A stretch of DNA of 64,000 nucleotides, from NCBI GenBank assembly GCA_965284385.1, contig OZ260077.1, positions 288,329 through 352,328 on the forward strand. Direction: 5' to 3'. A program made the position numbers and the translations under genes. Each line of letters opens with the position of its first letter. Position 1 is the stretch's first letter. The notes below the pieces were generated by a model. That model was not told the origin of the DNA. It saw nothing but the letters and a program-made list of their open reading frames with translations, and ran no database searches. Source of the DNA: Caulobacteraceae bacterium. Its GTDB lineage: Bacteria; Pseudomonadota; Alphaproteobacteria; Caulobacterales; Caulobacteraceae. Positions 1-13,470 of the stretch are shown here, piece by piece.

Positions 1-1131
1 CCGCGCATAGTGTTCCACCCCATCCGCGTCCCTGACCACCACGAACGGCGACGTCCCCGCTTCGTCGTGAAACCCCGTCTTGACCACCACCCCGCGCACC
101 CGCTCCGTCCCCAGCGGCCGCACCTCCCTCGCCCCCTCCAGCCGTCGCTGGTTCAGCGTCCGGATGATGTCGCGCCGCGCCTGCAGCGTCCGCAGCTTCG
201 TCTCCATCTCCTCGTCGAGCCGGTAGCGCCGCCCCGTCCGAACAGCGAGCCCCAGCCCCTCCAGATGCCGCAACCGTCCCCGGGTCAGCGCCGCCCAGGC
301 GTCGTTCACCCCCACGCCGTCCTCGACCGTCCCGTTCACGTCCACCGCCGCCAGCAGCCGCCGGTCGAACCCCGTGAACCGGTCCGCCCCGGTTTCCCTC
401 CAGATGCGCCGTTCCGCCTCCACCCGCGACAGGTCCCCGAGCCGCTCCTGCGCCACCTCCTGCGCCCGCGCCCGGAAGCCGTAGCCGATGTAGTCGCGCG
501 GGATGACCAGGTCCCGCCCGTCCCCTCGCCGCCCCCGCACGAGCACATGGGCGTGCGGCTGATCAGTGTCGTAGTGGCAGGTCGCCACCCACTTCAGATC
601 CGACTCCCCGAGGTCTGCTCCGACCCGCCCCATGACCTCGCGGACATACCCCTTAAGGTCGTCGATCCGGTCGCCGTGCTCCGGCGAGATGATGAAGCGG
701 AAGTGGTGCCGATCCGCGCTCCAGCCTGCCGTCTCGACCGCCGGCCGGACCCCGTCCGCCTCCCGATCGAAGAACTCCGGCCGCGCCCCCTCCACCCCTG
801 CGCCCGATCGTCCCAGGTAACTCACATGCGCCGCCAGCGCCGCCGCCCGGTCGGCGCCCTTGCCGACATGCCGGGACACCAGCGCCTTGACGATGACCCG
901 CTGACGAACGTCCAGACGAAAGGCCCGGCCCGAGCGTCCCTGCGCCGCCCTGAGCACCCCTGACCGATCCCCCAGCGCGAACGCCCGCGAGCTGGCCAGT
1001 CGTCGCAACAGGCCGGTGCGGACGTTCACCCGATCGGGTTTGAGGGACATCGGAAGTCGGACCTGGACCGCCTCCGGGTCCTGACCGGCGCCGGCCGACA
1101 GACGCGACTGGATGGCTTCACGGATCAGCAT
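1..1131 (-). CDS. MOB_P/VirD2-type relaxase with DUF3363-like C-terminal part (3' end beyond window)
   Basis: Manual minus-strand translation (absent from the ORF track because it has no stop in the window): MLIREAIQ...QRVIVKALVSRH...AHVSYLGR...RHHFRFIISPEHG...WVATCHYDTDQPHAHVLVRG (HUH motif). GGAGG RBS upstream. Confidence 0.9.
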   Translation of the reverse strand, partial: MLIREAIQSRLSAGAGQDPEAVQVRLPMSLKPDRVNVRTGLLRRLASSRAFALGDRSGVLRAAQGRSGRAFRLDVRQRVIVKALVSRHVGKGADRAAALAAHVSYLGRSGAGVEGARPEFFDREADGVRPAVETAGWSADRHHFRFIISPEHGDRIDDLKGYVREVMGRVGADLGESDLKWVATCHYDTDQPHAHVLVRGRRGDGRDLVIPRDYIGYGFRARAQEVAQERLGDLSRVEAERRIWRETGADRFTGFDRRLLAAVDVNGTVEDGVGVNDAWAALTRGRLRHLEGLGLAVRTGRRYRLDEEMETKLRTLQARRDIIRTLNQRRLEGAREVRPLGTERVRGVVVKTGFHDEAGTSPFVVVRDADGVEHYAR

Positions 1132-1190
1132 TCCATGCCTCCCACCAAGCCGACGCCGCCGCCCAGGACCGACAACTCACCGCAAGTCGT

Positions 1191-1275
1191 CCAACACCCT
1201 CCAGCGCGCCGCTAACCTGCTGACAGACTACGAAAAACCCGGACCGCCCAACACCCTCTTTTATCTTGCCCTAAG
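1191..1275 (+). other. Candidate oriT/nic site
   Basis: TATCTTG^CCC at 1262-1271 differs by one base from the RP4 nic TATCCTG^CCC. An 11-bp direct repeat CCAACACCCTC lies at 1191-1201 and 1248-1258. The site is directly upstream of the relaxase. Confidence 0.6.
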
Positions 1276-1407
1276 CCCCTTTTTGCAGATTTCCGGACAC
1301 CGCCGTCATACGTTCGCACGTCGGACCAAACCTCATCATCGCATCCCCGGTCCGTCGCCTGGGTGGTCCCCGAGGCGCCGTCTGCGATCGCTCGAACGCC
1401 CCAGACG

Positions 1408-1445
1408 ACAAACAAAAACCCGCCCGGCCGAAGCCGAGCGGGTCG
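1408..1445 (-). terminator. Intrinsic terminator after DUF2493 gene
   Basis: Minus strand reads ACCCGCTCGGC-TTCG-GCCGGGCGGGT followed by TTTTGTTTGT, about 20 nt after the stop at 1466. Confidence 0.7.
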
Positions 1446-1465
1446 TTGGTGTCAGTCTCGATCGA

Positions 1466-2398
1466 TCAGGCCGCGCGCGCCCGGATGGGGACATGCCGCA
1501 GCCCGGACTCCATCGCCTTCTGTCCAAGGTTGAGCGCCGGTCCGAACGGCCGCTGGTCCGCCCGCGCCCGATCCACCGAATGCACCAGGGTGAGGCAGAC
1601 CTCAGGCTCGAGCGCGATCAGCTCGTCGTTCGCCCGGAACGGAGCGGCCTTTCCGTGGGTGTCGAAGTCGGCCCGGGCGAGGATCAGCTTCACCCCCTTC
1701 TGCTGGGCCCATTTGATCGCCAGCTTCTCGGAGCCCTTCGCCCCGGTCGTCGCCAGGGCCATGTCGGGCCACTCCTGTTTCGCCCAGTTCAGGGCGTCGA
1801 AGATCCGCCCGGCGTCTTCCGGGGTATCCGCCGTCGGAGCCCCTCTGAAGGCGATGACCGGACCGCCCGGATCCGCCTCCCCCGCCCGCCGGTTGCGGAT
1901 CGCCCGGATCGCCTGTTTCGCCTCCAGCTGGGCGGCCGTCAGATGCGTGCCGCGCCGGCTGCCGCGCCAGGCCGTCCAGACCTCTCCGGTCGCGACCGTC
2001 CAGGTTTGCGACGCCGCGTCCCGGATCAGTTCGCAGGCCTGCGTCGCCGCATCGCCTGCCCGGGCTTTGGCCGTGGCATCCTGCAGTTCGACGTCGGCCG
2101 CTTCCGATCCGTCGAAGTCCCGGTCGAGCGATCGCATCGTATCGCGCGCCCTATCCGCGTCGCGTTCGATCCGCCCGGCCGCCGAATGGAAGGCGCCGAT
2201 CAGGGCTTCTCCGAGGATCGTTTGGTAGTCCTCGAGCGCGGTGTCCGAGATCACGTCCAGAAGCTCGGTCATGAGCGCGCGCCCGAGCTGGGCCAGGGCG
2301 TCTTCCGTCGGAAGCGGACCGCCTTCCTCGATGGAGGCTGACAGGTTGCCCAGGGCGGAGTCGGATTTGGCGGAGAAGGGTGAGCTGAAGGTTTGCAT
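1466..2398 (-). CDS. DUF2493 (YspA-like SLOG) domain protein
   Basis: C-terminal IFDALNWAKQEWPDMALATTGAKGSEKLAIKWA...GKAAPFRANDELI matches the DUF2493 pattern. Start re-called to MQTFSSPF. Confidence 0.7.
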   Translation of the reverse strand: MQTFSSPFSAKSDSALGNLSASIEEGGPLPTEDALAQLGRALMTELLDVISDTALEDYQTILGEALIGAFHSAAGRIERDADRARDTMRSLDRDFDGSEAADVELQDATAKARAGDAATQACELIRDAASQTWTVATGEVWTAWRGSRRGTHLTAAQLEAKQAIRAIRNRRAGEADPGGPVIAFRGAPTADTPEDAGRIFDALNWAKQEWPDMALATTGAKGSEKLAIKWAQQKGVKLILARADFDTHGKAAPFRANDELIALEPEVCLTLVHSVDRARADQRPFGPALNLGQKAMESGLRHVPIRARAA

Positions 2399-2442
2399 CG
2401 GGTCATTCCGTTTCTGAAATGTCGAAGCGCCCCATGCGCAAC

Positions 2443-2818
2443 GACCCCGGTTTTGGCCACAGCGGGGTCCCCGGCAGTCACCGGAGCGGCCCGCCCCTTG
2501 CGGGCCGTGAAGGGGAACGGCAAAGCCGTTGACTTCCGGGGTGCTGTGACAAAATCGGAGGGCGTTGTGTGGGGGCAAGTCCTCGCCCGCCTTCGGGCGA
2601 GGACACAACTCGGCGCCGTCGCGCCGATACGGACAAAGACGCATCGGTTCGCTTGCCGGCGACGGCGCGCCGTCGCCCATCCGGGACCGGTGTGCTGGAA
2701 GGCGGCGGACCCCGTCCGCCGCGCACGTGGACGAGTCCCCGGCTCTTGAAGCTCGTCCCTGCCTTCGCGGGGGCGCCGAAAGCAGACCAACGGCGGCCTC
2801 GGGGGTCGAGGCCGCCGT
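2443..2818. other. Non-coding block of about nine consecutive hairpins
   Basis: Stems at 2443-2469, 2487-2507, 2516-2530, 2579-2604, 2610-2627, 2658-2677 (20-bp palindrome), 2702-2722, 2729-2758 and 2790-2818 (12-bp stem). Confidence 0.8.
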
Positions 2819-2855
2819 GATGGCGCCGGACTGGGGAGTTCAGCAACGCGGCGTC

Positions 2856-3332
2856 TCAGTCCAGACCCGCGAGTGCCATCAGACTCTCGGCGCTCTGGCG
2901 GACGGGACGGTAGCCGATCTCCGCATGCGCGGCGCAGAAGGCCCCCCTCGCGATCCGCCTGCCGCACAGGGCGAAGCCGGGGTCTCCGGGATCGCCGTAG
3001 GGCCAGCGGCAATCGCGCCGACGCACAAACAGGATGGTCGCCGTCCCATGAGACGGCGCATCCACCCGGCGCGGTGGGCACGACGCCGGACCCGGCGGCG
3101 GCGCGGGCCGGGCCGGCCAGGGCCGACGCGCGACCGGGGGCGCGGCGAGGCCGGCGGACCTTGAGGCCGGCGGCCGAGCGGCCGACAGGCCCAGGCGATA
3201 GACCTTGCCCAGGACCGCGCTTCTTGTGAGGCCGTGATCCAGATCGCTCGCGATCTGTGCGGCGCTACGGCCTTCGAGCCAGAGGGTCTTGAGACGACCG
3301 ACGCGGTCGTCGGTCCAGGCGGAGGCGGTCAT
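2856..3332 (-). CDS. gcrA: GcrA cell-cycle regulator family protein
   Basis: N-terminal WTDDRVGRLKTLWLEGRSAAQIA...TRSAVLGKVYRLGL (GcrA DNA-binding domain) and C-terminal CRWPYGDPG...CG...FCAAHAEIGYRP. Confidence 0.88.
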   Translation of the reverse strand: MTASAWTDDRVGRLKTLWLEGRSAAQIASDLDHGLTRSAVLGKVYRLGLSAARPPASRSAGLAAPPVARRPWPARPAPPPGPASCPPRRVDAPSHGTATILFVRRRDCRWPYGDPGDPGFALCGRRIARGAFCAAHAEIGYRPVRQSAESLMALAGLD

Positions 3333-3362
3333 GGCGGAACTCCGGTGTCAGCGAGCCCAATC

Positions 3363-3392
3363 GGCTCGCCCGCCTCCGCCCTCGCCTCGCCC
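3363..3392 (-). repeat. 30-nt purine-rich upstream element, copy 1
   Basis: Sense strand GGGCGAGGCGAGGGCGGAGGCGGGCGAGCC, 24/30 identical to 8715-8744. Confidence 0.65.
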
Positions 3393-3456
3393 TCCGGGCT
3401 CCCATGGAAACGGCCCGACGCTCGCGCGCCGGGCCGTTCCGCCTTTCGCCGACGGA

Positions 3457-3876
3457 TCAGAACGGGATGTCGTCGTTCAGATCGTATCCGCTCGCCGGCT
3501 CCTGCACCTGCCGGTCGGCGGCGCCGTCGTCCGCCGACGGCCGGTCGCGCCGGTTCTTCAGACGAATGTCGCCGACGATCAGACGCAGATCGTAGTGTTC
3601 GACCCCGTCCTTGCCGGTCCAGGTGTCGTTCTCGACATGGCCCTGGATCACGACCCGGCTGCCCTTGCGGGCGAAGGCCTCGATGTATTTCTCGGCCGTC
3701 GCCTCGTTGAAGCAGATGCAGTTGAAGCCGGTGGTGCGCTCGCCCGGCGTGCCGTCGGCGCGCCGGAAGCGGGTGGTCTCCAGCACGCGGAAGCTCGCGC
3801 GCTTCTTGCCCGAGCCCTGGGCCGACAGGATGGACGGGTCGGCGGCCAGATAGCCTTCGAGGGTGAGGGTTTGCAT
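3457..3876 (-). CDS. ssb: Single-stranded DNA-binding protein with acidic tail
   Basis: OB-fold GYLAADP...KGSRVVIQG...WTGKDG and C-terminal DLNDDIPF. Confidence 0.88.
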   Translation of the reverse strand: MQTLTLEGYLAADPSILSAQGSGKKRASFRVLETTRFRRADGTPGERTTGFNCICFNEATAEKYIEAFARKGSRVVIQGHVENDTWTGKDGVEHYDLRLIVGDIRLKNRRDRPSADDGAADRQVQEPASGYDLNDDIPF

Positions 3877-3910
3877 GGTCAGTCTCCTGAAGATGAAATT
3901 CGGTTGAGGA

Positions 3911-4276
3911 TCAGGCGGCGGCGCGATCGGTTTCGCGGGCGTCGACGGTGTCGGGGTCGCGGGCCTCGGCCCAGTCGAGGACGGTCAGCCGGTTCACCAC
4001 CAGTTCCTTGGCGGTGCGTTCGGTCCCGTCCTTGGCGGCATAGGCCGTGTCGATGAAGGCGCCGACGACGACGGCTTCGCAGCCTTGGGCCAGTCCGCGG
4101 GCGATAACCTTCTCGTTGAGCCCCTTCGACCAGCTGACGCAATTGACCCCGACGAGCCGGTCCTTGCCGGCGGCATCGACGCCGCGCTTTTCGAGCAGCC
4201 GGAACACCGCCTTGGCGAAGTCCGGGCTGATCTGGGGGTCGGCCGCCAACCGGCCGGTGAACACCATGGTCTGCAT
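3911..4276 (-). CDS. Second SSB-family OB-fold protein without DDIPF tail
   Basis: MQTMVFTGRLAADP...GCEAVVVG...YAAKDG. Start re-called, with an AGGAG RBS. Confidence 0.7.
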   Translation of the reverse strand: MQTMVFTGRLAADPQISPDFAKAVFRLLEKRGVDAAGKDRLVGVNCVSWSKGLNEKVIARGLAQGCEAVVVGAFIDTAYAAKDGTERTAKELVVNRLTVLDWAEARDPDTVDARETDRAAA

Positions 4277-4399
4277 GTCAGTCTCCTGTTGATCCGAAGC
4301 GCCGGGGAGCCGATCTCCCCGATCCCGCTTCACCCGGGACCTCCCTTCCTCCAGCCCCTCCTGCCCGGACGGGGCCTTCGCCCCCGCCCGGCGCATGCC

Positions 4400-7300
4400 T
4401 CAGGCGGCCGCTCCGTCGAGGACGGTCTGGACGGGATGGCGGCGCAGCACCGCCTCCACCACCTCAGGCCGATCCGTCGGCGCGAACACCCGGGGCGTAA
4501 AGGCGATGATCTCGACGAAGCACCCGAGCGCGACCAGGGCGTCGCGGTCCGTCCGCCCGCCGACCACCTCGATCCGCCAGCGGTCCATGACCCGCGACCG
4601 CTTGAGCCACAGGCCGCCTTCCAGCGAGAGCTGGACGTTGCGATCCAGTAAGGTGGCGGCGGTCCTTGCCCCGTCCGACCAGGCCTCGCCGACATCTGTC
4701 AGGCCGAGGCTCGCCTTGAGGCTTTGTGCCTGGACCTCGTCCAGCACACGCCCCAGCCAGCGCCGGCCGTCCGGCGCCCTGACCCGACGCACCGAACAGC
4801 CGCGCGCGGGCAGCCGGCCCCAGATCGGCAGCAGCAGACCGGTCGCGAGCGTGAGGTCGCGCGTCCGCCACGGGTCGGTTCCCGCCACCTCCTCATCCCA
4901 GACGCGGCGCCATTCGTTGGTTGCCGCTGGCTTCCAGGCCGATTCCTCGAAGGTCCTCTCTGGCAGGGTCTGACGCCCATCCGGCCGGATCAGGCGAACG
5001 GCGGCGACCAGCCGGTCCTCGTCCGTGGCGGTGGTCAGGCCGAGCTCGGCGACCGCCGCCCGGCCGGATTTGGCGTTGACGACCAGCTGATGGGCGATGT
5101 CGGCGGCCCGGGCCAGCGCGTCATGCGAGAGCAGGATGTCGCGACGAACCCTGAGCGAGAAGGTCACCAGGGCGGTTTCAGCGCCGGTCGAGACATCGGT
5201 CCGGATGGTTTCCTGGTGCAGAACCGCCAGTTCCTCCGCCTCGATGTCTTCAAGTCCACGGTCCAGATCCCCCGACGCGGCCGCACGCTCGAGGATGCCC
5301 GAGAGAATGCGGTCGAAGTCCTCGAACAAGGCGTTCTGGTCGGCGATCCTGAGCGCCAGCAGGCGGTTGAGGAAGGTGTGGATCGGCGGCAGGTCGTCGG
5401 ACGGCTTGAGTCCGCCGTCGGCGTCGAGCAGCTTGAGACCCGTCTTGTGTATGAAGGTCTGGAGCGTCATCGCAGCGAGTTCACCGAACGCCAGGGCCCC
5501 GTAGAAGACCAGCAGGGCCCGGCGCGCCCATGGGCTTTCCAGATTGTCCTCGGCCCGGAAGAGGCCCGCCCCGGCCGTCCGGCGCTCGCCGCGCGTGAGC
5601 GCGCCGAGCGTGTCCAGACGGCGGGCGATGGTCGAGGTGAAGCGTTTTTCGCCCTGGATGTCCGTCGTGACCGGCCGGAACAGCGGGGCCGAGGCCTGGT
5701 GGGTGCGGTGGCTGCGACCCAGCCCCTGGATGGCGGCGTCGGCCCGCCAGCCCGGTTCGACCAGATAGTGGACCCGGCGCTGCTGGTTCGCCGCCGACAG
5801 GTCCGCGTGATAGCTGCGTCCGGTGCCTCCGGCGTCGGAGAAGATCAGCACCCGCTTGCGGCCGCTCATGAAGGCGTCGGTCTCGGCGCGCGCCGCCGAG
5901 GCGCCGCGCCGTTCCACCAGCCTGCGTCCGTCGCGCACGACCACCCGCCGGGACCGCCCGGTGATCTCGGCGACGGCGTCCGCGCCGAGGGCCTCCAACA
6001 GGGCGTCGAGCACCCCCGGCACGGCGGGCAGGCAGGCCATCTGTTCGATCAGGCTCTCGCGCCGGGCCAGCGCCTCCTGGCTGACGGCCGGACGGCCGTC
6101 GTCCATGACCGGAACCAGGGTGACCTCGCCGCTCTCCCCCTCGACCGCCTCCATCAGGTGGATCGGGAATGCCTCGCGCAGGTAGTCGAGGACATATTCA
6201 CGCGGGGTCATGTCTATCGAAAGGTTGTTCCATTCCTCGGGCGGGACGGACGCCAGCCGCCGCTCCATCACCGCCTCATTGGTCGAGACGATCTGGACCA
6301 CGGCCGAGCGATCGTGGCCCAGATCCTCCCGGATCGACGCCACCAGGCTCGGCGCCTTCAGCCCCGCGAGCAGATGGCCGAAGAAGCGCAGCTTGGCGCC
6401 CTCGAAGGCGGAATGGGCCGCCGACGCGGCCTGGCCGCTCCTGGGCTTGCCCGTCTCGTCGTTGACGCCGACGGCCTTCAAGGCCTCGGCGAGATTGGCG
6501 TGGATCAGCTGGAAGGCGTCGGCCCAGGCGTCCCAGATCGCGATGTCGTCGGACGTCAGGGGATGGACCAGCGGCTGGTATTCGACCCCTTCGAACGACA
6601 GGCTCCGCGCCACATAGAGGCCGAGCGCCTTGAGTTCGCGCGCCACCAGCTCCATCGCCGCCACCCCGCCCCGGTCCATGGCGTCCAGGAAATCCGCCCG
6701 CGACATGAAGGGCGCCTCCGGCCCGCCCCACAGGCCCAGCCGGGCGGCATAGGCCAGGTTCTCGGCGGTGGTGGCGCCGGTCGCCGAGACATAGAGGACC
6801 CGCGCATCGGGCAGTCGGTTCTGCAGCGCCAGACCGGCCATCCCCTGCAGCGACGCCTTCTTCGTTCCCCGCGCGCCCTTGCCGCCACCCGCGGCGTTGG
6901 CCATCGCATGGGCCTCGTCGAAGGCGATGACGCCGTCGAAATCCGCGCCGAGCCAGGCGATGATCTGGTCGAGCCGCGATTGACGGGCGCCCCGCGCCGG
7001 TTGGCGAAGCGTCGCATAGGTCGTGAACAGAATGCCCCGGTCGAGCCGGATGGCGTCCCCCTGTTTCCAGCTCGAAAGGGGCACGATGTCATGAGCGCCG
7101 CCGCCGATCGCCGCCCAGTCGCGCCGCGCGTCCTCCAGCAAGGCGTCGTTCCGTGACAGCCATAGCGCGCGCACCCGGCCCTGGCTCATGTTGTCGGCGA
7201 TGACGGCGGCGATCTGGCGGCCTTTGCCGCAGCCGGTGCCATCGCCCAGGAAGAAGCCGCGCCGCAGCTGGACGGCGTCCTCCTGGTCCTCGGGCGCGAG

Positions 7301-8662
7301 CACCATATGGTGGGGCGCCGTGTCCAGCCGCCACTGTCCGGGCAGATGCGCGGCGTGGGCCTCGCCGGCGTAGATGACCATCTCGGTCTGGGCGTCCGAG
7401 ATCCAGCCCTGGTCGCGCATGGCCGGAGGGAGTACCGGTCGATAGGTCGGCGCCGGCGGCGCCACCGAGGCCATGGGCCCGGACTCGACCAGAGGCGACG
7501 GATGCGGGCGGGGCTCGGGCAGAACGATCCGCCCCAGGGCGTGGGCCTGGTATAGCCCGACATCGCGACCCTCCCCCGTCCAGGCGCGAACCTCATAGGT
7601 CAGGGCCGCAGCCCCACCCAGAAAGGCCAGCCGGCCGGAGGGCAAGGCCAGGCCTCGCGCGCGTGGTCCCAGCAGGGCGTCTATCGTCACCGGCAGGCGC
7701 GTTCGCGGCCTGGCGCCGATCCGCGGCGAAATCGCCCCTGTCATCCGCGCCGCGCTCTGCAGGTCGTCGGCGGTCTGGAGCGGCGCGGCGCCCGCGGGAC
7801 CTTCGGCGCGGTCGATCACCAGCAGACCGGTCTCAACGGAGGTCCCATGTTTGGCGAAACCGCCGGACGGCAAGGCGATGCGGCTCACGACGGCGCCGAC
7901 CTCGCAGAGGCGGCGAAGCAGCGCGGCGTCCGTCAGGGCGTTCAGGGGGACGATCGCGGCCAACCGGCCATGGTCGGCCAGGGCCTTCAGGGCCGCCGTC
8001 AGATGGGCGGCCAGGTTCGAGAACGGCGGATTGCACACCACCACGTCGAATTCGCCCGAGCCCGCGGACAGGTCATGGATATGGCGTCCGTCGTGGCGCG
8101 TCCGGTCCGCGCCCGGAAAGAGCCCGTCGAGGAGGTCGGCCCGACCGGTCGCGAGCTCATTCAGGCTCAGCAGCCCACCGCAGGCCTCCGCGACCGAGGC
8201 GATGAGGCCCGTTCCGGCCGAGGGCTCCAGGACGCGGTCGCCGGGACGCACCTGGGCGGCCAGGACGGCGAGCGCGGCCAGATGCGGCGGCGTCGAGAAT
8301 TGATCGAACTCGACCTGCGCCTCGCTGCGCCGGGACTGGGTCAGCCCGAGCGCCGAGACGGCCGCCAGCAGGGCGGTGATCTCCGCCGGCGCATCTTCCA
8401 GGCGGCCGACCTGGGGCGCGAGACGCCGGACCTGCAGGACCGTCGCCGCCTCTATCGCGTCATAGGCGTCGCGCCAGGCCCAGACGCCCTCGGCGTCGGA
8501 CCCGCCGAACGCGGTCGTCATGATGGCGGCGACGAGCTTGCGGTCGAGCGGACGGGACCGCGCCAGATGCGCCGCCAGCGCCCGGGCGGCAGCGAGGATA
8601 TTGGCGGCGGCATCGCCGGCGGCCGGATCGGCGAACAGGGACAGGTTGGGGGTCGAGGACAT
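4400..8662 (-). CDS. N6-adenine methyltransferase-like domain fused to strawberry-notch NTPase/helicase
   Basis: VLEPSAGTG and NPPF (MTase motifs I and IV); LGDGTGCGKGR, FDEAH, GGTGRSYHAD, QGLGRSHRTHQ (SNO motifs). Start re-called to MSSTPNL. Confidence 0.88.
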   Translation of the reverse strand: MSSTPNLSLFADPAAGDAAANILAAARALAAHLARSRPLDRKLVAAIMTTAFGGSDAEGVWAWRDAYDAIEAATVLQVRRLAPQVGRLEDAPAEITALLAAVSALGLTQSRRSEAQVEFDQFSTPPHLAALAVLAAQVRPGDRVLEPSAGTGLIASVAEACGGLLSLNELATGRADLLDGLFPGADRTRHDGRHIHDLSAGSGEFDVVVCNPPFSNLAAHLTAALKALADHGRLAAIVPLNALTDAALLRRLCEVGAVVSRIALPSGGFAKHGTSVETGLLVIDRAEGPAGAAPLQTADDLQSAARMTGAISPRIGARPRTRLPVTIDALLGPRARGLALPSGRLAFLGGAAALTYEVRAWTGEGRDVGLYQAHALGRIVLPEPRPHPSPLVESGPMASVAPPAPTYRPVLPPAMRDQGWISDAQTEMVIYAGEAHAAHLPGQWRLDTAPHHMVLAPEDQEDAVQLRRGFFLGDGTGCGKGRQIAAVIADNMSQGRVRALWLSRNDALLEDARRDWAAIGGGAHDIVPLSSWKQGDAIRLDRGILFTTYATLRQPARGARQSRLDQIIAWLGADFDGVIAFDEAHAMANAAGGGKGARGTKKASLQGMAGLALQNRLPDARVLYVSATGATTAENLAYAARLGLWGGPEAPFMSRADFLDAMDRGGVAAMELVARELKALGLYVARSLSFEGVEYQPLVHPLTSDDIAIWDAWADAFQLIHANLAEALKAVGVNDETGKPRSGQAASAAHSAFEGAKLRFFGHLLAGLKAPSLVASIREDLGHDRSAVVQIVSTNEAVMERRLASVPPEEWNNLSIDMTPREYVLDYLREAFPIHLMEAVEGESGEVTLVPVMDDGRPAVSQEALARRESLIEQMACLPAVPGVLDALLEALGADAVAEITGRSRRVVVRDGRRLVERRGASAARAETDAFMSGRKRVLIFSDAGGTGRSYHADLSAANQQRRVHYLVEPGWRADAAIQGLGRSHRTHQASAPLFRPVTTDIQGEKRFTSTIARRLDTLGALTRGERRTAGAGLFRAEDNLESPWARRALLVFYGALAFGELAAMTLQTFIHKTGLKLLDADGGLKPSDDLPPIHTFLNRLLALRIADQNALFEDFDRILSGILERAAASGDLDRGLEDIEAEELAVLHQETIRTDVSTGAETALVTFSLRVRRDILLSHDALARAADIAHQLVVNAKSGRAAVAELGLTTATDEDRLVAAVRLIRPDGRQTLPERTFEESAWKPAATNEWRRVWDEEVAGTDPWRTRDLTLATGLLLPIWGRLPARGCSVRRVRAPDGRRWLGRVLDEVQAQSLKASLGLTDVGEAWSDGARTAATLLDRNVQLSLEGGLWLKRSRVMDRWRIEVVGGRTDRDALVALGCFVEIIAFTPRVFAPTDRPEVVEAVLRRHPVQTVLDGAAA

Positions 8663-8819: not shown

Positions 8820-10862
8820 TCAGGCGGCGGCGGGATCGAGCGCGGCCTCACCGGCCGGGGTGACGGCGAACGCCCCAACCCCGTCGTCGTCGAACGCAGG
8901 GTCTTGCTCGTCGATGGGCCGGTCGTCAGCTTCGTCGGCATCGTCCTGCGGCGAGCCCGCCCAGGACAGGCCGGCCGGCGCCCAGGTCCGCGACGCCGCC
9001 TGTTCGGCGACCCAGTCGACCAGTTCGGCCTTCTTCAGCGACCTGGCGCGGTCGTCTTCGGCCCCCATGGCCTCGAGCATCACCAGCAGCAGCCCCTTGG
9101 AGTGAAGCTGAAGGAAGGGCGCGTCAGGCGTCCAGTGCAGGGTGATGTCCGCCGCGCAGAGCGCGGCCAGTTCAGCCGCTTCCGCGCGGGCGCTGCGCCG
9201 GATCAGGGTCGTGCGTTCCTCGCGGACGTCGAGGCTGATCGCGGTCAGTTCGGCCAGCAGACCCATCTTCTCGCCATGCGGCAGCGCATGAACCCAGGCG
9301 ATGACGGTCTCGCCCGAAGCCTGCCAGGTCGCGCGGCGATCGTCGAGCCGCTGGCGCACCTCTCCGTCCAGGGGTTCGATCACCCGCCCGCCGGCCGGAT
9401 TGAAGCCGGTGGCGAGGATGGCCAGAGCCGAGTCCGGGCGCGCCACATGGGTGCGCAGCACCAGAACGGTGAACAGGCGCGCGATCAGGGCGGTCAGGGC
9501 GGCGCCCGGGTCATCGGCCAGGGCGCGGATCAGTCCCCGCGTCGCGACGTCGGTGCGCACGCCGTGCAGGGCATGGTTGACGCCGTCGATCTCCGGCGCG
9601 GGCGCCGCCACTTCGGGAGGGACATAGGCCGGCGGAGCCGACGCCTGGTCCGGTGGACCGCTCCCGGTCGAACCGTCCTCCTCGATCTCGGGTTCCTCGG
9701 GCGTGTAGCAGCGCACATCGACGCCCGTGCCGGAGGCGGGCCACATAACCATCGTCGTCACCACCCGCCCGCCGCAACCCGTCTGGTCCGCCGTCACCCG
9801 GGCGCGGATCATGGCGATGATGGCGGCGTCCACAGTCTCGGGGTCGCCGGCCTCCGAGAGAGCCCGCCGGGCCGTCTCCGCCCGCTCATTGAACACCTCG
9901 CGCTGGGCCCGGTAACGCGCCATGTCTTCAGCCGGAAGCTGGCCGCCGTAGACATAGCCCAGCGCTTCCAGGTCGTCGGGCAGTTCAGGCTCGGGTCCGG
10001 CGGTGACATGCACCGCGATCCCCTCGGCCTCGAAGACGGCGGCGATGGCGCGCGCCCGTCGGATCCACAGGTCGGTCAGGATGTCGGGATCGAGCAATAC
10101 GGGCGCCAGCTCCCCGAACAGATCCGCCTCGGTGCGGCCGCCGGCTTCTCCATAGCGGACCGAATCCACCAGGGCGCAGCGGCGGTCCCGGGCGGTGACC
10201 CGCCCTTCGTCGAGCCGTTCCGTGATGCGCCAATCCTGAAATCCATGCCCGTCCAGCGCCGCCTCGGCGAGCTCGGCCTGCTCCGCCTTGTCCGGCAGAC
10301 GGGCCAGCAGCCGGGCCTGTTTGAGGGTCATGCGCCCGGCCTTGAGGGCCGCGAGGGCGACCGGCGGCAGCCCGGCCAGGGCGGCCAGGCGTTTGACGTC
10401 GATCTCGGCGTAACCGAGAGCCCGGGAGATCACGGACACCGTCAGCCTGGATTTCAGCATCCGGCCGATGGCGGCGATGATATCGGCGACATGGACGGGC
10501 ACGGCCGTGTTGGTCAACAGGACGGCCGCCGCCTGGCGAGCCGGATCGGTCTCGACATAGACCGTGACCGGGTAGGTCTCGTCGATCTCCCCCGCGTCCA
10601 GCAGCAAGCCCAGGGCCAGGCGACGACGGCGGCCGTCCAATGCCATCCAGGGCTCCTCTTTTCTGCCGCGGCCGGGGCGGACGGTGAGGCGCTGCAGCTG
10701 GCCGGCGGCCTTCATCGTGGCGGCCAAGGTCGGGATGTCGTCATCCGGCGGCTCATTGAATCGCAGATTCTCGCGGGCGATGCCGATGTCGCCGAGGCGG
10801 ACGGTGCGTTCGTCGCGCGCGACGACGACCGCGGGCATGCTGACAGGAACAAGGTCGGTCAT
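8820..10862 (-). CDS. parB: ParB/Spo0J-family protein (long mobile-element type)
   Basis: N-terminal ParB domain ([17 protein letters not shown]...[10 protein letters not shown]) followed by an HTH. Start re-called to MTDLVPV. Confidence 0.85.
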
Positions 10863-10913: not shown

Positions 10914-11816
10914 TCAAGACCCTCGCTCCTCTCCTTTCGCCGCGGCGACGGCCACCTCGTTCCAGTCGCCGAACGGCGGGTCTGGAAGGACGATACGGAC
11001 CTCCAGACCGCCGGGCACGAGGCGGCGTCGAAGCCGCGCCGCGCAGCCCTCGCCCGCGGCTCCCCGGTCGGCGGCGATCAGCACGCGGCGCACCCGCGCG
11101 GGCGGCGTCCAGGCCGCGAGGTTGTTCGCCGCCATCAGGGCCCAACCCGGAAGTTGGAAGCGGTCCATGGCGCACAGGGTCGTGACAACGCCTTCCCCGA
11201 CCAGCATCTCCGCAGCCGCCGAAGCCAGACGAACGGCGGCGCCGGCCGGAACCAGACCGACCGTCTTTCGCGTCAGTCGCAGGCCCGAGGCGAGACGCCC
11301 GTTCCGGTCCAGATAGGTCAGCTCCACCGCCGTCAGCCGGTCCTCTCTGTCGCTGATCCGCGCGATCAGGGCGGGGCGACCCCGGCCACGCGGCCGGTAG
11401 ACGGAGATCGGCGCTTCCGGATGGAACCTGAGGTTCGACGCGGCGGCGACGGCTTGAACGGCGCGCCGATGCAGGTAGCGATCGGCGGGGCCGCCGCCAT
11501 CCAGCCCCCGACAACCGGCCCAGAGATCCGAGGCCGTCTGGAGACGAAGACGGGGATCGGGCCTTGGGACCGGCGGACCCGGCGGCCCACCGCCGGTCAA
11601 TCGGCCAGCATCGTCGATGAAGCCCCGGTCGTGCAACTGATCGCGGACGGTCCTCCAGTCCGACCCGCCGAAGCCGTGAATGACGACCCGGTTGTCGGTC
11701 AGCAGCAGCGAGACCGAACGATCCTGCGCGCTATGGCCGGGCGCGGGGACATTGGCGCGCCGTCCGCCGGAATAGAGATCGCCGCCCAGGGCGGCGACGA
11801 TGCGATGCAAGGTCAT
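10914..11816 (-). CDS. DUF7146/Toprim domain protein
   Basis: PAPGHSAQDRS N-terminus; VGEGVVTTL and LIAADRGAAG...DWNE Toprim motifs. Confidence 0.8.
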   Translation of the reverse strand: MTLHRIVAALGGDLYSGGRRANVPAPGHSAQDRSVSLLLTDNRVVIHGFGGSDWRTVRDQLHDRGFIDDAGRLTGGGPPGPPVPRPDPRLRLQTASDLWAGCRGLDGGGPADRYLHRRAVQAVAAASNLRFHPEAPISVYRPRGRGRPALIARISDREDRLTAVELTYLDRNGRLASGLRLTRKTVGLVPAGAAVRLASAAAEMLVGEGVVTTLCAMDRFQLPGWALMAANNLAAWTPPARVRRVLIAADRGAAGEGCAARLRRRLVPGGLEVRIVLPDPPFGDWNEVAVAAAKGEERGS

Positions 11817-11823
11817 GGCCGCC

Positions 11824-12522
11824 TCAGATCAGGCCGAGGGCCTTGAAGCTGGCCGTGCCTTCCCGGCCGACGACGAGGTGGTCATGGACCTGCAGATTGA
11901 AGACCCGCGCCGCCTCGACGATCTGTCGCGTCATCTGGATATCGGCCTGCGACGGCGTCGGGTCGCCGGAGGGATGATTGTGGACCAGGATCAGGGCCGA
12001 CGCCGAAAGTTCAAGCGCCCGGCGAATGATCTCGCGCGGATAGACAGGGGCATGGTCAACTGTCCCGTCGGCGACGAGTTCGTCCCGCATCAGCTGGTTC
12101 CTGCGATCCAGAAACAAGGTCCTGAACTGCTCGCGCGGCTCGTGAGCGAGCGCCGCCCGCACATAGGCCACCAGCGCGGTCCAGGACGTGATGACCGGGC
12201 GGCGGCTGGCTTCGGCGCGCGCAAGACGGACCGCGAACTCGCGCAGAAGCGTCAGCTCGGCCCGGAGGACGGCCCCCACGCTGGACGCCTGGGCCAGATC
12301 GCCGGGCGCCGCGCCGGCGACGCCGCCGAGGCTCCCAAACTGTTCGAGCAAGGCGGCGGCGAGCCGCGCAGAATCCGTCTCCGGATCCATCCGCTCCAGT
12401 ATCAGAGTCAGCAAGGTCTGATCGTCCAGCGCCGCAGGGACGAGGGTCGGCGACGCGGGACGGCGCCCGCGTGGTTCGGGGGCCGGCGCCCGGATCAGGG
12501 TCGGGGTCGGGGTCGGTCTCAT
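11824..12522 (-). CDS. radC: RadC/JAB-domain protein
   Basis: EQFRTLFLD...GTVDHAPVYPREI...HNHPSGDPTPSQAD...HDHLVVG. Start re-called to MRPTPTP. Confidence 0.92.
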   Translation of the reverse strand: MRPTPTPTLIRAPAPEPRGRRPASPTLVPAALDDQTLLTLILERMDPETDSARLAAALLEQFGSLGGVAGAAPGDLAQASSVGAVLRAELTLLREFAVRLARAEASRRPVITSWTALVAYVRAALAHEPREQFRTLFLDRRNQLMRDELVADGTVDHAPVYPREIIRRALELSASALILVHNHPSGDPTPSQADIQMTRQIVEAARVFNLQVHDHLVVGREGTASFKALGLI

Positions 12523-12625
12523 GGCGGTCTCCTTCTCCGCTCCACCACGGAGCGCCCGCCGTCCGGCCTTCCTTTCTCTCCACGCCGGGCTTGTCCCCGA
12601 CCCGGCGTCGCGCCACCCTGGGCCG

Positions 12626-13033
12626 ATGAAATGGCTTCTGATCACCGCCGGACTCCTGCTGGCGCCGGCCGTCGCCCGGGCCGATCCGTGCGAGGGCCGG
12701 CTGCCCGCTCGCGCCGGGGAAGCCTTTGAGGGGATCGTGCGCTACGTCGGCGACGGCGACAGTCTGTGCGTGGGTGACGCCGTCGACCCGGCCGCCTGGA
12801 TCGAGGTGCGCCTTTCGGACTTCGACGCCCCCGAACTGCACAGCGCCACCGGCCGCGCGGACCGTGACCGCCTGGCTCGCCTCGTCGCCCGCCGCCGGCT
12901 CGATTGCGTCGCGGTTCGGGGCCGGAACGGCCGGGTCATCGTCCACGACCGCGTGATCGCCTCCTGCAGGCTGAACGGACGTCGGGTCGGCGACCTCCTC
13001 CGCGCCGCCGGGGGCCGGGAGGGTGGAAACTAA
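12626..13033 (+). CDS. Secreted thermonuclease (SNase-like) protein
   Basis: Signal peptide MKWLLITAGLLLAPAVARA; VGDGDSL and VRLSDFDAPE motifs. Confidence 0.75.
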   Translation: MKWLLITAGLLLAPAVARADPCEGRLPARAGEAFEGIVRYVGDGDSLCVGDAVDPAAWIEVRLSDFDAPELHSATGRADRDRLARLVARRRLDCVAVRGRNGRVIVHDRVIASCRLNGRRVGDLLRAAGGREGGN

Positions 13034-13164: not shown

Positions 13165-13470
13165 TGCGCCACATCACGCCAAGCCGTCAGTCGTGAACAT
13201 CTCCGGCTCAATTGGCTGATTGTGCAGAGGCCGGGCTCTGCTTCGATGCGGCCTCTGTGTGGCGCCGGTGCTGGACAACGAGGTCGAGGAAATCACCCTC
13301 ATCGTCCACGACCCGCTGCAGGTGCATGCGTCTGCTCACGATCCAGCAGACCAACTCGTCGAGATGCCAGCGGGGCGACGGCGCGGGCCGTCGGCGCTTC
13401 AAGCGGCCGGGCGATCAGAGGCCCTTCACTCGGCGCATGACGGCGGTCGCCGGCAAATTGCGCCAATCCG
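13165..13470 (-). pseudogene. IS6-family transposase remnant
   Basis: KRRRPAPSPRWHLDELV...VDDEGDFLDLVVQHRRH resembles the IS6 DDE core. It is frameshifted and truncated; no terminal IRs seen. Confidence 0.7.

Follow-up and report, generated by a model that had tools for sequence, protein, structure and literature searches.

The locus described here raises the question of whether a mobile element carries the cell-cycle master regulator of its host, GcrA, and of what such a protein would do there. The gene lies at 2856..3332, on the minus strand, of a stretch of 64,000 nucleotides (the window, whose own numbering is used throughout) from a Caulobacteraceae bacterium (assembly GCA_965284385.1, contig OZ260077.1, positions 288,329 to 352,328), and forms part of a block of genes related to conjugative transfer. 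GcrA has so far been treated as a host cell-cycle factor and is, to our knowledge, the only well-studied bacterial activator that both rides on region 2 of sigma70 and reads DNA methylation. No paper linking GcrA to conjugative or integrative elements was found in the searchable full-text literature, and, in that part of the supplementary family tables of a large leading-region survey which is open to searching, the Strawberry-notch/methylase family is present and GcrA is not. As is argued below, the gene is a core gene of an integrative-element family of Brevundimonas and not the host cell-cycle gcrA, and its product is best read, with moderate confidence, as an element-encoded sigma70 cofactor with a specificity of its own, paralogous to GcrA.

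The open reading frame (ORF) runs uninterrupted from ATG to stop over 158 amino acids, as the original prediction had it, with the correction that it is read from the minus strand, and its GC content by codon position (0.72/0.67/0.82) is what genuine genes show in this sequence of 70% GC. The product matches the Pfam GcrA profile PF07750 at 110.8 bits, residues 5-148 falling on profile positions 2-152 of 155, where the curated cut-off is 26.9 bits. The chain of Caulobacter crescentus GcrA in 7ye1_G was matched at E = 1e-29, the aligned parts being the DNA-binding domain (5-49) and the sigma-interacting domain (SID, 81-148), and the identity between both proteins is about 42%. An AlphaFold model, built on 30 homologues, reached a pLDDT of about 90-95 in both domains and left the linker disordered, with helices of the DNA-binding domain at residues 8-19, 24-31 and 37-47. 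Using Foldseek, this model was superimposed on the GcrA DNA-binding domain (5yiv_A) with 0.6 Å over 44 residues (TM 0.92), and on the GcrA SID (5yix_B) with 0.9 Å over 46 residues. The spacing of the zinc knuckle, C-X14-C-X9-C-X2-H, is exact (C108, C123, C133 and H136). The ORF is, by sequence and predicted fold, a real gene encoding a GcrA-family protein, and it shares with C. crescentus GcrA (PDB 5YIV, 5YIX, 7YE1) the arrangement of two domains joined by a disordered linker and the CCCH zinc knuckle. Four parts are distinguished in it: the DNA-binding domain (residues 1-50, nt 3183-3332), a disordered Pro/Ala-rich linker (residues 51-94), the CCCH zinc-knuckle domain to which a sigma70-interacting role is assigned by homology (residues 95-145, nt 2898-3050), and a conserved, non-basic C-terminal tail, SAESLMALAGLD (residues 147-158).

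Belonging to the family does not make this gene the host gcrA. Against the NCBIfam equivalog model for GcrA, NF050816, the protein scores 115 bits, the cut-off being 280. Its close homologues, with 50-99% identity, come almost entirely from Brevundimonas. When one genome per species was scanned, 169 relatives were confirmed, of which 80 loci were analysed by probing them with the window's own proteins for synteny. In about 76 of these 80 loci the same co-oriented block was recovered, RadC-Toprim-ParB-(Sbno)-SSB'-SSB-GcrA-SLOG-relaxase, where SSB denotes single-stranded DNA-binding proteins, and the block was missing only in the four most distant loci, 34-38% identical and outside Caulobacterales; independent look-ups, including a variant from another cluster, agree on it. 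The gene was intact at every locus examined, six of which carry a copy 98-99% identical to that of the window, one of them (L011) on the chromosome of Brevundimonas sp. BR2-1, within a contig of 1.9 Mb. Several copies can coexist, strain LM2 having two and B. bullata S00223 three, and one copy was located on a 134-kb Brevundimonas plasmid. Nevertheless, the family is chiefly found on integrated elements rather than plasmids, since a survey of PLSDB returned relatives in only 9 records, mostly chromids or mislabelled chromosomes. A gcrA of the canonical type was seen beside argD/argF, whereas the window gene sits in a mobile-element block. Therefore, of the original claim that a host cell-cycle master regulator is carried by the element, the family assignment and the element-borne location stand, while the identification with the host cell-cycle gene does not; likewise, the objection that this might be the sole, syntenic chromosomal gcrA is answered by the equivalog score, the multiple copies, the transfer block and the argD/argF neighbourhood elsewhere.

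A canonical gcrA is expected to be co-resident in the same genome. This expectation rests on indirect evidence and on the literature, Brevundimonas subvibrioides having a canonical GcrA with a Caulobacter-like ChIP-seq motif and a CcrM which methylates 99% of GANTC sites (PMC7987155); a protein search with canonical GcrA as query yielded no canonical gcrA from the same genome, the 120 matches listed being all unnamed or proteins of Caulobacteraceae metagenome-assembled genomes (MAGs). It could be argued that the gene is, after all, the host gcrA, or a spare copy of the gcrB kind which happens to lie near mobile genes. The database name, "GcrA family cell cycle regulator", would suit this explanation, as would the precedent of C. 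crescentus GcrB (CC_1211 / CCNA_01269), a second GcrA-family protein, 44% identical to GcrA, a level similar to that of the window protein, whose over-expression partly complements a gcrA deletion (Murray et al., PMC3885167), later work using gcrB solely as a deletion background. Nonetheless, this explanation is considered very improbable, given the score below the equivalog cut-off, the several copies per genome, the different canonical neighbourhood and the position within a relaxase/SSB block, together with the absent basic patch, the altered pockets and the rapid divergence between elements described next.

The residues that set this clade apart were tabulated over 58 distinct element-borne proteins, using the C. 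crescentus GcrA numbering and the roles assigned in structural papers (PMC5887438). The zinc ligands are intact in all 58. At the DNA interface W3, W15, R33 and R42 are invariant, and G38 and K39 are kept in 57 and 55 proteins, respectively; at the sigma70 interface W120 (55/58), G123 (58/58), F130 (55/58) and Y151 (56/58) are retained, and K119 is replaced by arginine throughout. All these retained residues are also present in the window protein. The pockets with which GcrA reads N6-methyladenine (m6A) are formed by R33, N34, I37 and G38, N34 lining both and I37 being the floor of the first one (PMC5887438), and it is here that the clade departs from the canonical protein: the window protein keeps the arginine and the glycine and has N34 changed to S and I37 to L. 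Across the clade, leucine replaces I37 in 57 of the 58 proteins, and position 34 is occupied by S in 35 proteins, by N in 12, by C in 9 and by H in the other 2. The recognition helix thus reads TRSAVLGKVYR in the window protein and TRNAVIGKVHR in C. crescentus GcrA, the latter exactly as given in the original prediction, which had pointed to substitutions in this helix; the changes at N34 and I37 are indeed typical of the clade, while Y45, corresponding to H41, stands at a position where the clade itself varies (H 27, Y 16, R 7, A 7).

As regards the sigma70 interface, mutagenesis showed K119, W120, D124, G129, F130, F132, Y142 and Y151 to be needed for binding region 2 (PMC5887438), and at these positions the window protein reads R, W, D, G, F, L, F and Y, that is, five of the eight identical, two conservative replacements (K to R and Y to F) and one changed residue (F to L). 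GcrA's C-terminal patch of basic residues, which is in contact with the discriminator strand and gives stability to the open complex, and whose deletion lowers activation in vitro (PMC9976885), is absent from the element clade. In the window protein the tail after the SID is RPVRQSAESLMALAGLD, and the clade in general has a tail of about 17 residues, S-L-x-x-L-A-G/R-L, predicted to be helical and containing no more than four K+R in most members. Among 150 family representatives, the L-type helix and the non-basic tail occur together in the closest 25 or so, whereas the bulk of them combine the TRNAVIGKVHR helix with K/R-rich tails. In accordance with this, the comparison with chromosomal GcrA called for in the original prediction placed the window protein, in a neighbour-joining tree (no bootstrap), in a clade of about 33 terminals which excludes C. 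crescentus GcrA. The ratio of nonsynonymous to synonymous substitution rates (dN/dS, omega) was 0.09-0.2 for the DNA-binding domain, 0.14-0.27 for the SID and 0.5-0.8 for the linker, so both folded domains are under purifying selection. Elsewhere in the family the small DNA-binding domain exists in tandem arrays, as three large representatives (P0139, 617 aa; P0140, 482 aa; P0177, 1,350 aa) contain 3-8 separate matches to the GcrA DNA-binding segment.

According to the preferred reading, that of a sigma70 cofactor with its own specificity, the zinc-knuckle domain would dock on region 2 of the host housekeeping sigma factor and the protein would travel with RNA polymerase (RNAP) as canonical GcrA does. 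The fact that gcrB partly complements a gcrA deletion indicates that GcrA paralogues can engage the same machinery (PMC3885167). The N-terminal three-helix domain retains the two arginines that would read the outer G:C pairs and, the methyl pocket being altered, a fraction of the holoenzyme would be steered to sites other than the canonical YGAKTCK boxes. As the patch that stabilises the open complex is lacking, the protein would modulate or redirect the sigma70 holoenzyme and not replace GcrA; the beneficiaries would be the transfer, establishment or maintenance genes of the element, or selected host genes. To judge from the sequence, the island is probably tuning transcription for itself.

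Several points weigh against this reading. Docking on sigma70 is deduced from residue conservation only, and the interface itself is not untouched, F132 being replaced by L in 53 of the 58 proteins and Y142 by F in 49. The residue at position 129 is D in 16 of them and G in 24, G129D being a change with which the C. crescentus protein loses its sigma70 interaction in two-hybrid assays; the glycine is kept in the window protein. The gene diverges much faster than its neighbours, its product being 61% identical to that of locus L017 where the SSB and the relaxase are 92% identical. No candidate binding motif is shared by the intergenic regions of the element. No recognisable promoter of the sigma70 type precedes the gene, the scan of 13.5 kb for such promoters having come out empty, which is expected for DNA of 70% GC with a different promoter consensus and is hence uninformative. 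Finally, the 64-kb window contains no homologue of Trb (TrbB/C/D/E/L), VirB, TraG or a coupling protein, and it should not be presumed that this copy serves self-transfer, since a type IV secretion system (T4SS) is found neither in the window nor beside the relaxase of L011.

The gene is, in fact, the fastest-evolving member of the block, a second comparison giving 77% identity where the SSB has 99%, and the linker explains only part of the difference. Such fast divergence could reflect diversification of specificity or weaker constraint.

The same combination of kept and lost features lends itself to another explanation, namely, that the protein is a competitive antagonist, occupying sigma70 region 2 without an activating patch and thereby dampening the host GcrA regulon and delaying S-phase or division genes while the element is transferred or established. 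The conserved core of the SID and the replacement of the basic patch by the 17-residue tail would fit such a blocker, especially as the deletion of this patch lowers activation by GcrA in vitro and as GcrA binds RNAP far more tightly than DNA, 60 nM compared with 48 µM (PMC9976885); besides, the reprogramming of host transcription by a leading-region protein has a precedent in HerB, described below. However, the DNA-binding domain is the most constrained part of the protein and its base-contacting arginines are invariant, neither of which would be needed by a pure sigma70 blocker. Antagonism is consequently a doubtful explanation, although one to be kept in mind, and the interference with the recipient cell cycle suggested in the original prediction may likewise occur.

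A further explanation, the one put forward in the original prediction, is that the element GcrA senses methylation, reading the unmethylated, hemimethylated or fully methylated state of GANTC in the incoming leading region and switching on early genes. The host lineage does methylate GANTC, with the 99% methylation in B. subvibrioides (PMC7987155) and, over the window as a whole, a 3.4-fold depletion of this sequence, which occurs 95 times where about 321 are expected, and the extended box YGAKTCK is likewise depleted over both strands of the window (13 compared with about 97 expected), which is consistent with a CcrM-bearing host. The synthesis of a complementary strand on the transferred one is also established to give hemimethylated DNA, the arginines which read guanine and the G38 pocket floor are conserved, and the three GANTC sites which had been singled out, at 2733, 8759 and 10866, are all intergenic, as claimed, under the homologue-supported starts of the Sbno (8662) and ParB (10862) genes. 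Nevertheless, in the 13.2-kb block GANTC is not enriched between genes (2 in 1,269 bp of intergenic and 15 in 11,931 bp of coding DNA), and YGAKTCK does not occur on either strand, about 11 being expected per strand. Conservation is lacking as well: across related loci the upstream spacer of the gene contains GANTC in 4 of 52, the density of this sequence downstream of the gcrA-like gene and ahead of the relaxase gene is that of the background, the best alignment column before the relaxase has it in 10 of 50, and at the two cited junctions it occurs in 4 distinct loci out of 33 and in 5 out of 47, while no position is conserved before the SLOG gene either. The cited sites are thus lineage-specific chance occurrences, as they are not conserved across related elements, and the gcrA-like protein, if it acts on the element, would not do so through canonical boxes, as the block has none. 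Since, moreover, the replaced residues N34 and I37 are precisely those of the pocket, and no single-stranded DNA (ssDNA) promoter is evident for the gene, whose upstream hairpins act on coding-strand RNA, the sensing of GANTC methylation on the element's own DNA is left without support and is regarded as improbable. Both GANTC and YGAKTCK were rejected as conserved cis elements of the block on the grounds of enrichment, conservation and box counts.

The element may, on the other hand, possess a methylation activity of its own. The Strawberry-notch-like (Sbno) protein has an N-terminal amino-methyltransferase signature, EPSAGTG...NPPF, joined to its helicase, from which it is probable that the element methylates adenine (or N4-cytosine) at some motif. 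An obligate pairing of this methyltransferase as writer with the GcrA variant as reader was rejected, since one sub-lineage of the element (10 loci) lacks the Sbno gene and keeps the gcrA-like one, and the pocket residue of the latter does not track the presence of Sbno.

The gene has its own transcriptional signals, all of them on the minus strand. The upstream spacer, of 124 bp (3333..3456), keeps the same architecture in 52 distinct loci: first the GC-rich hairpin which terminates the ssb operon (3409-3438), then a purine-rich tract, also conserved, next another conserved hairpin, GCGAGCC-GATTG-GGCTCGC (3351-3369), and, just after it, the ribosome-binding site GGAG (3340-3343). Both hairpins covary, with 90.9% of the cells paired and 9 pairs changed on both sides over the 52 loci, a level reached by none of 500 shuffles and far above that of slid controls. 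They act at the RNA level, as the G·U pairs fall on the coding strand, and for this same reason a function as ssDNA promoter on the template strand was rejected. On the other side, 38 nt past the stop codon, a perfect 12-bp hairpin (2790..2818; inverted repeat I6, 100% complementary and also found by RNA folding) is a probable terminator. Terminator hairpins bracket the gene, which is thus a monocistronic, separate transcription unit. No CtrA boxes were found in the block, and alphaproteobacterial LexA boxes occur there at chance level. These signals bear on the explanation that the gene is a decaying passenger without function, to which its faster evolution compared with its neighbours and its nearly neutral linker might have led. 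A gene which is intact everywhere, with all zinc ligands preserved in the 58 proteins, an omega well under 1 in both domains and regulatory hairpins conserved through compensatory changes, is hardly a passenger, and this explanation is judged the least credible of all.

The placement of the gene relative to the point at which transfer would start was considered in the light of what is known of leading regions, where genes for SSBs, methyltransferases and anti-defence functions share one strand and are found across the origin of transfer (oriT) from the relaxase (PMC11541004). The nine genes which run from RadC to the relaxase (12645 down to 1) are all on the minus strand, the last of them coding for a RlxS-like MobA/VirD2 relaxase of which the N-terminal 377 aa (1..1131) precede truncation by the left edge of the window. 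This fragment carries the histidine motif HYDTDQPHAH and matches NF041267 RlxS with 224 bits (profile positions 51-386 of 654), DUF3363 with 39.9 bits and, below the cut-off, the Pfam Relaxase profile with 22.2 bits. The relaxase of the element family is only 411-416 aa long (complete in L011, 12207-13445, 412 aa), covering the N-terminal 386 of the 654 RlxS positions. Between the SLOG and relaxase genes lies a spacer of 334 bp (1132..1465), a candidate oriT/promoter region aligned over 50 distinct loci and with L011, in which the terminator scan placed the SLOG terminator at 1417-1444. It contains two near-invariant AT-rich cores, GGAAATCTGCAAAAAGGGGCTTAGGGCAAGATAAAAG at about 1254-1294, seen across the 50 distinct loci as GGAAATCTGC.AAAAGGGGCTTAGGGCAAGATAAAAG, and GACGACTTGCGGTGAGTTGTCG at about 1170-1191, which are good candidates for the oriT/nick region. 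The gcrA-like gene is about 1.4-1.7 kb from this candidate oriT, the block lies across it from the relaxase and all its genes point towards it, so that by analogy a leading-region placement is plausible. With the usual nick polarity, the plus strand would enter the recipient in the 5' to 3' direction, bringing in SLOG, the hairpin, gcrA-like and SSB one after the other, and the gcrA-like gene would be the second to arrive if the nick is oriented as in other systems. Thus, of the conjugative leading region originally proposed, the relaxase, the candidate oriT and the one-strand gene order fit, but the 64 kb contain neither T4SS nor coupling protein.

The gene was also correctly said to lie between the SSBs and a block of hairpins, with ssb at 3457-3876 on one side and, on the other, a non-coding gap of 457 bp (2399-2855) which is strongly structured (RNA fold z = -5.1). 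In this gap a conserved non-coding element is found on the plus strand between the gcrA-like and SLOG genes (2429..2627), in which an imperfect hairpin some 150 nt long (2429-2576) is accompanied by two short ones with perfect pairing (2579-2604 and 2610-2627). Most of its columns are at least 80% conserved over 43 distinct loci, and the SLOG-proximal 200 nt or so of the gap are better conserved than the gcrA-like coding sequence itself. In the long hairpin 14-18 pairs show compensatory changes and, when read on the plus strand, 1330 cells are Watson-Crick, 104 are G·T and 24 are mismatches, compared with 126 mismatches for the same pairs on the coding strand. Selection favours the folding of this hairpin on the plus strand, which is the template of the block's genes and the strand predicted to be transferred, in agreement with a leading region and with a single-strand element. 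It is situated downstream, not upstream, of the gcrA-like gene. The 2429-2627 element is a candidate single-strand promoter or priming site, or else a plus-strand RNA. No -35/-10 mimic was identified in the long hairpin, and no Rfam family was found in the block, this element included, at E <= 0.1.

These features allow a more ambitious version of the preferred reading, in which the gcrA-like gene, the SLOG/DUF2493 gene and the long hairpin form an establishment module placed foremost in the transferred DNA, with the protein as an "appropriator" of sigma70. This version is speculative and, in our estimation, unlikely as it stands. If true, part of the housekeeping holoenzyme of the recipient or donor would be taken, through the GcrA docking site, to element-specific sites; the protein, devoid of the basic patch, would also damp the host GcrA regulon, transfer or establishment would be coupled to the host replication cycle, and the rapid divergence between co-resident elements would reflect element-specific promoter recognition.

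Comparison with known systems helps to place the element protein. Phage homologues of GcrA were reportedly noted in 2012. The GcrA-like protein of phiCbK-type phages (CbK_gp222) is likewise carried by a mobile element and has the same CRWPYGDP zinc-knuckle motif, but it is only about 29% identical to the window protein, and its helix is strongly diverged (TKSAVCGKADR) and its basic tail retained, the reverse of the pattern in the element clade, where the helix is kept and the basic tail lost. More generally, many alphaproteobacteria encode GcrA paralogues and phages carry homologues (Haakonsen et al.). On a Caulobacter rhizosphaerae MPF_T plasmid (NZ_CP048816.1, locus L090, 39846-42631), a replicon proficient in transfer, the genes for GcrA, DUF2493 and ssb stand in a row, the DUF2493 protein being 63% identical to the SLOG protein of the window. 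The GcrA of this plasmid differs from that of the integrated element in having the canonical kind of helix (TRNAVIGKIHR) and a basic tail and, with 38% identity to the window protein, represents a different paralogue lineage. As the same trio is thus formed with another GcrA lineage, the GcrA-SLOG-SSB association recurs across element types. The trio matches no defence system in PADLOC. Its recurrence in two element types and two GcrA lineages hints at a functional unit. HerB (YfjB), a ParB-like protein of enterobacterial plasmids, resembles the gcrA-like gene in being a leading-region gene which acts on host expression at establishment (bioRxiv 10.64898/2026.07.07.736705); nevertheless, its fold is unrelated (ParB/CTP clamp), it binds chromosomal DNA and not sigma70, it belongs to a different host clade, and its early expression has been demonstrated, whereas that of the gcrA-like gene is conjectural.

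A whole family of Brevundimonas elements therefore carries, as a core gene beside a candidate transfer origin, a GcrA variant with the docking module kept, the methyl pocket altered and the basic patch lost, which is a natural separation-of-function variant for dissecting GcrA. It is, in addition, a specific example, amenable to testing, of a mobile element which would draw on the central transcription machinery of its host in Alphaproteobacteria.

The remaining members of the block, all on the minus strand, were assigned by Pfam and synteny unless stated otherwise. RadC (11824-12645) and a DUF7146-Toprim protein (10914-11816) are followed by a ParB-like protein of 680 aa (8820-10862, its start supported by homologues) and by the Sbno-like amino-methyltransferase/helicase of 1,420 aa (4400-8662), identified through Pfam, NCBIfam and a methyltransferase-type match in PADLOC, with a start at 8662 which homologues also support. 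Next come two SSB genes matching PHROG 44, a divergent one (3911-4276; Pfam SSB, 16.6 bits) and ssb proper, of 139 aa with an acidic DDIPF tail (52.3 bits). The SLOG/YAcAr (DUF2493) gene, the constant downstream partner of the gcrA-like gene, codes for 310 aa when read from a homologue-supported internal Met (1466..2398; PF10686, 58.8 bits).

As for mobility, several related loci run on into TrbB/C/D/E/J/L genes. In L011 the relaxase gene is followed by DsrE, 5'-nucleotidase and Dsb genes instead of a T4SS, for which reason the window's lineage may be mobilizable in trans rather than self-transmissible. Many loci, those of LM2 and BR2-1 among them, have no T4SS after the relaxase and others have Trb genes there; the element family seems to mix self-transmissible members with mobilizable or decayed ones. 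In one Brevundimonas MAG (L002/L014, 10689-11696) a deletion fused the N-terminus of SLOG to the C-terminal part of a TraG-like coupling protein, removing the relaxase and leaving the gcrA-like gene immediately upstream of the trb genes as an operon. On either side of the gcrA-like gene the gaps are hotspots of insertion (L004, 10466-12148; L005; L006/L007, 5033-10000), where small ORFs, DUF4238, a cupin, or a cassette comprising two tyrosine recombinases together with DUF6878/DUF6915 genes are found depending on the locus, and the spacer from gcrA to SLOG ranges from about 200 to 1,900 bp; the small ORFs which follow the gcrA-like gene in other loci are absent from the window. No integrase was present among the scanned window ORFs, and no tRNA gene in the 64 kb.

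The lineage of the element is environmentally widespread, judging by metagenome matches, near-identical copies of the stretch 1100-4400 (65-86% of sampled words) being present in many metagenomes from groundwater, aquifers, lakes, sediment and rhizosphere, and no RNA runs containing the locus were evident in the sequencing-run look-up. From 13.2 kb on, the window is filled by cargo, starting with a 64-aa remnant of an IS6-family (IS240-type DDE) transposase (13208-13402) which marks its junction with the transfer block. The cargo between 13.5 and 62.4 kb is rich in stress and envelope functions. Lipid-modifying enzymes and ABC transporters are among them, and the genes present code for a YflT-like protein, a cyclopropane-fatty-acid synthase, an acyltransferase, a GT4 glycosyltransferase, an oleate hydratase (MCRA), acetate kinase with phosphoketolase, a GH65 phosphorylase, a lactate/malate dehydrogenase, an ECF sigma factor, a Crp-family regulator, a beta-CASP RNase, an ABC-2 exporter accompanied by a HlyD-like protein, a copper-type P-type ATPase, DUF305 and an RND pump with outer-membrane factor. 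The GC content falls to 0.61-0.63 at 14-22 kb and again at 44-48 kb.

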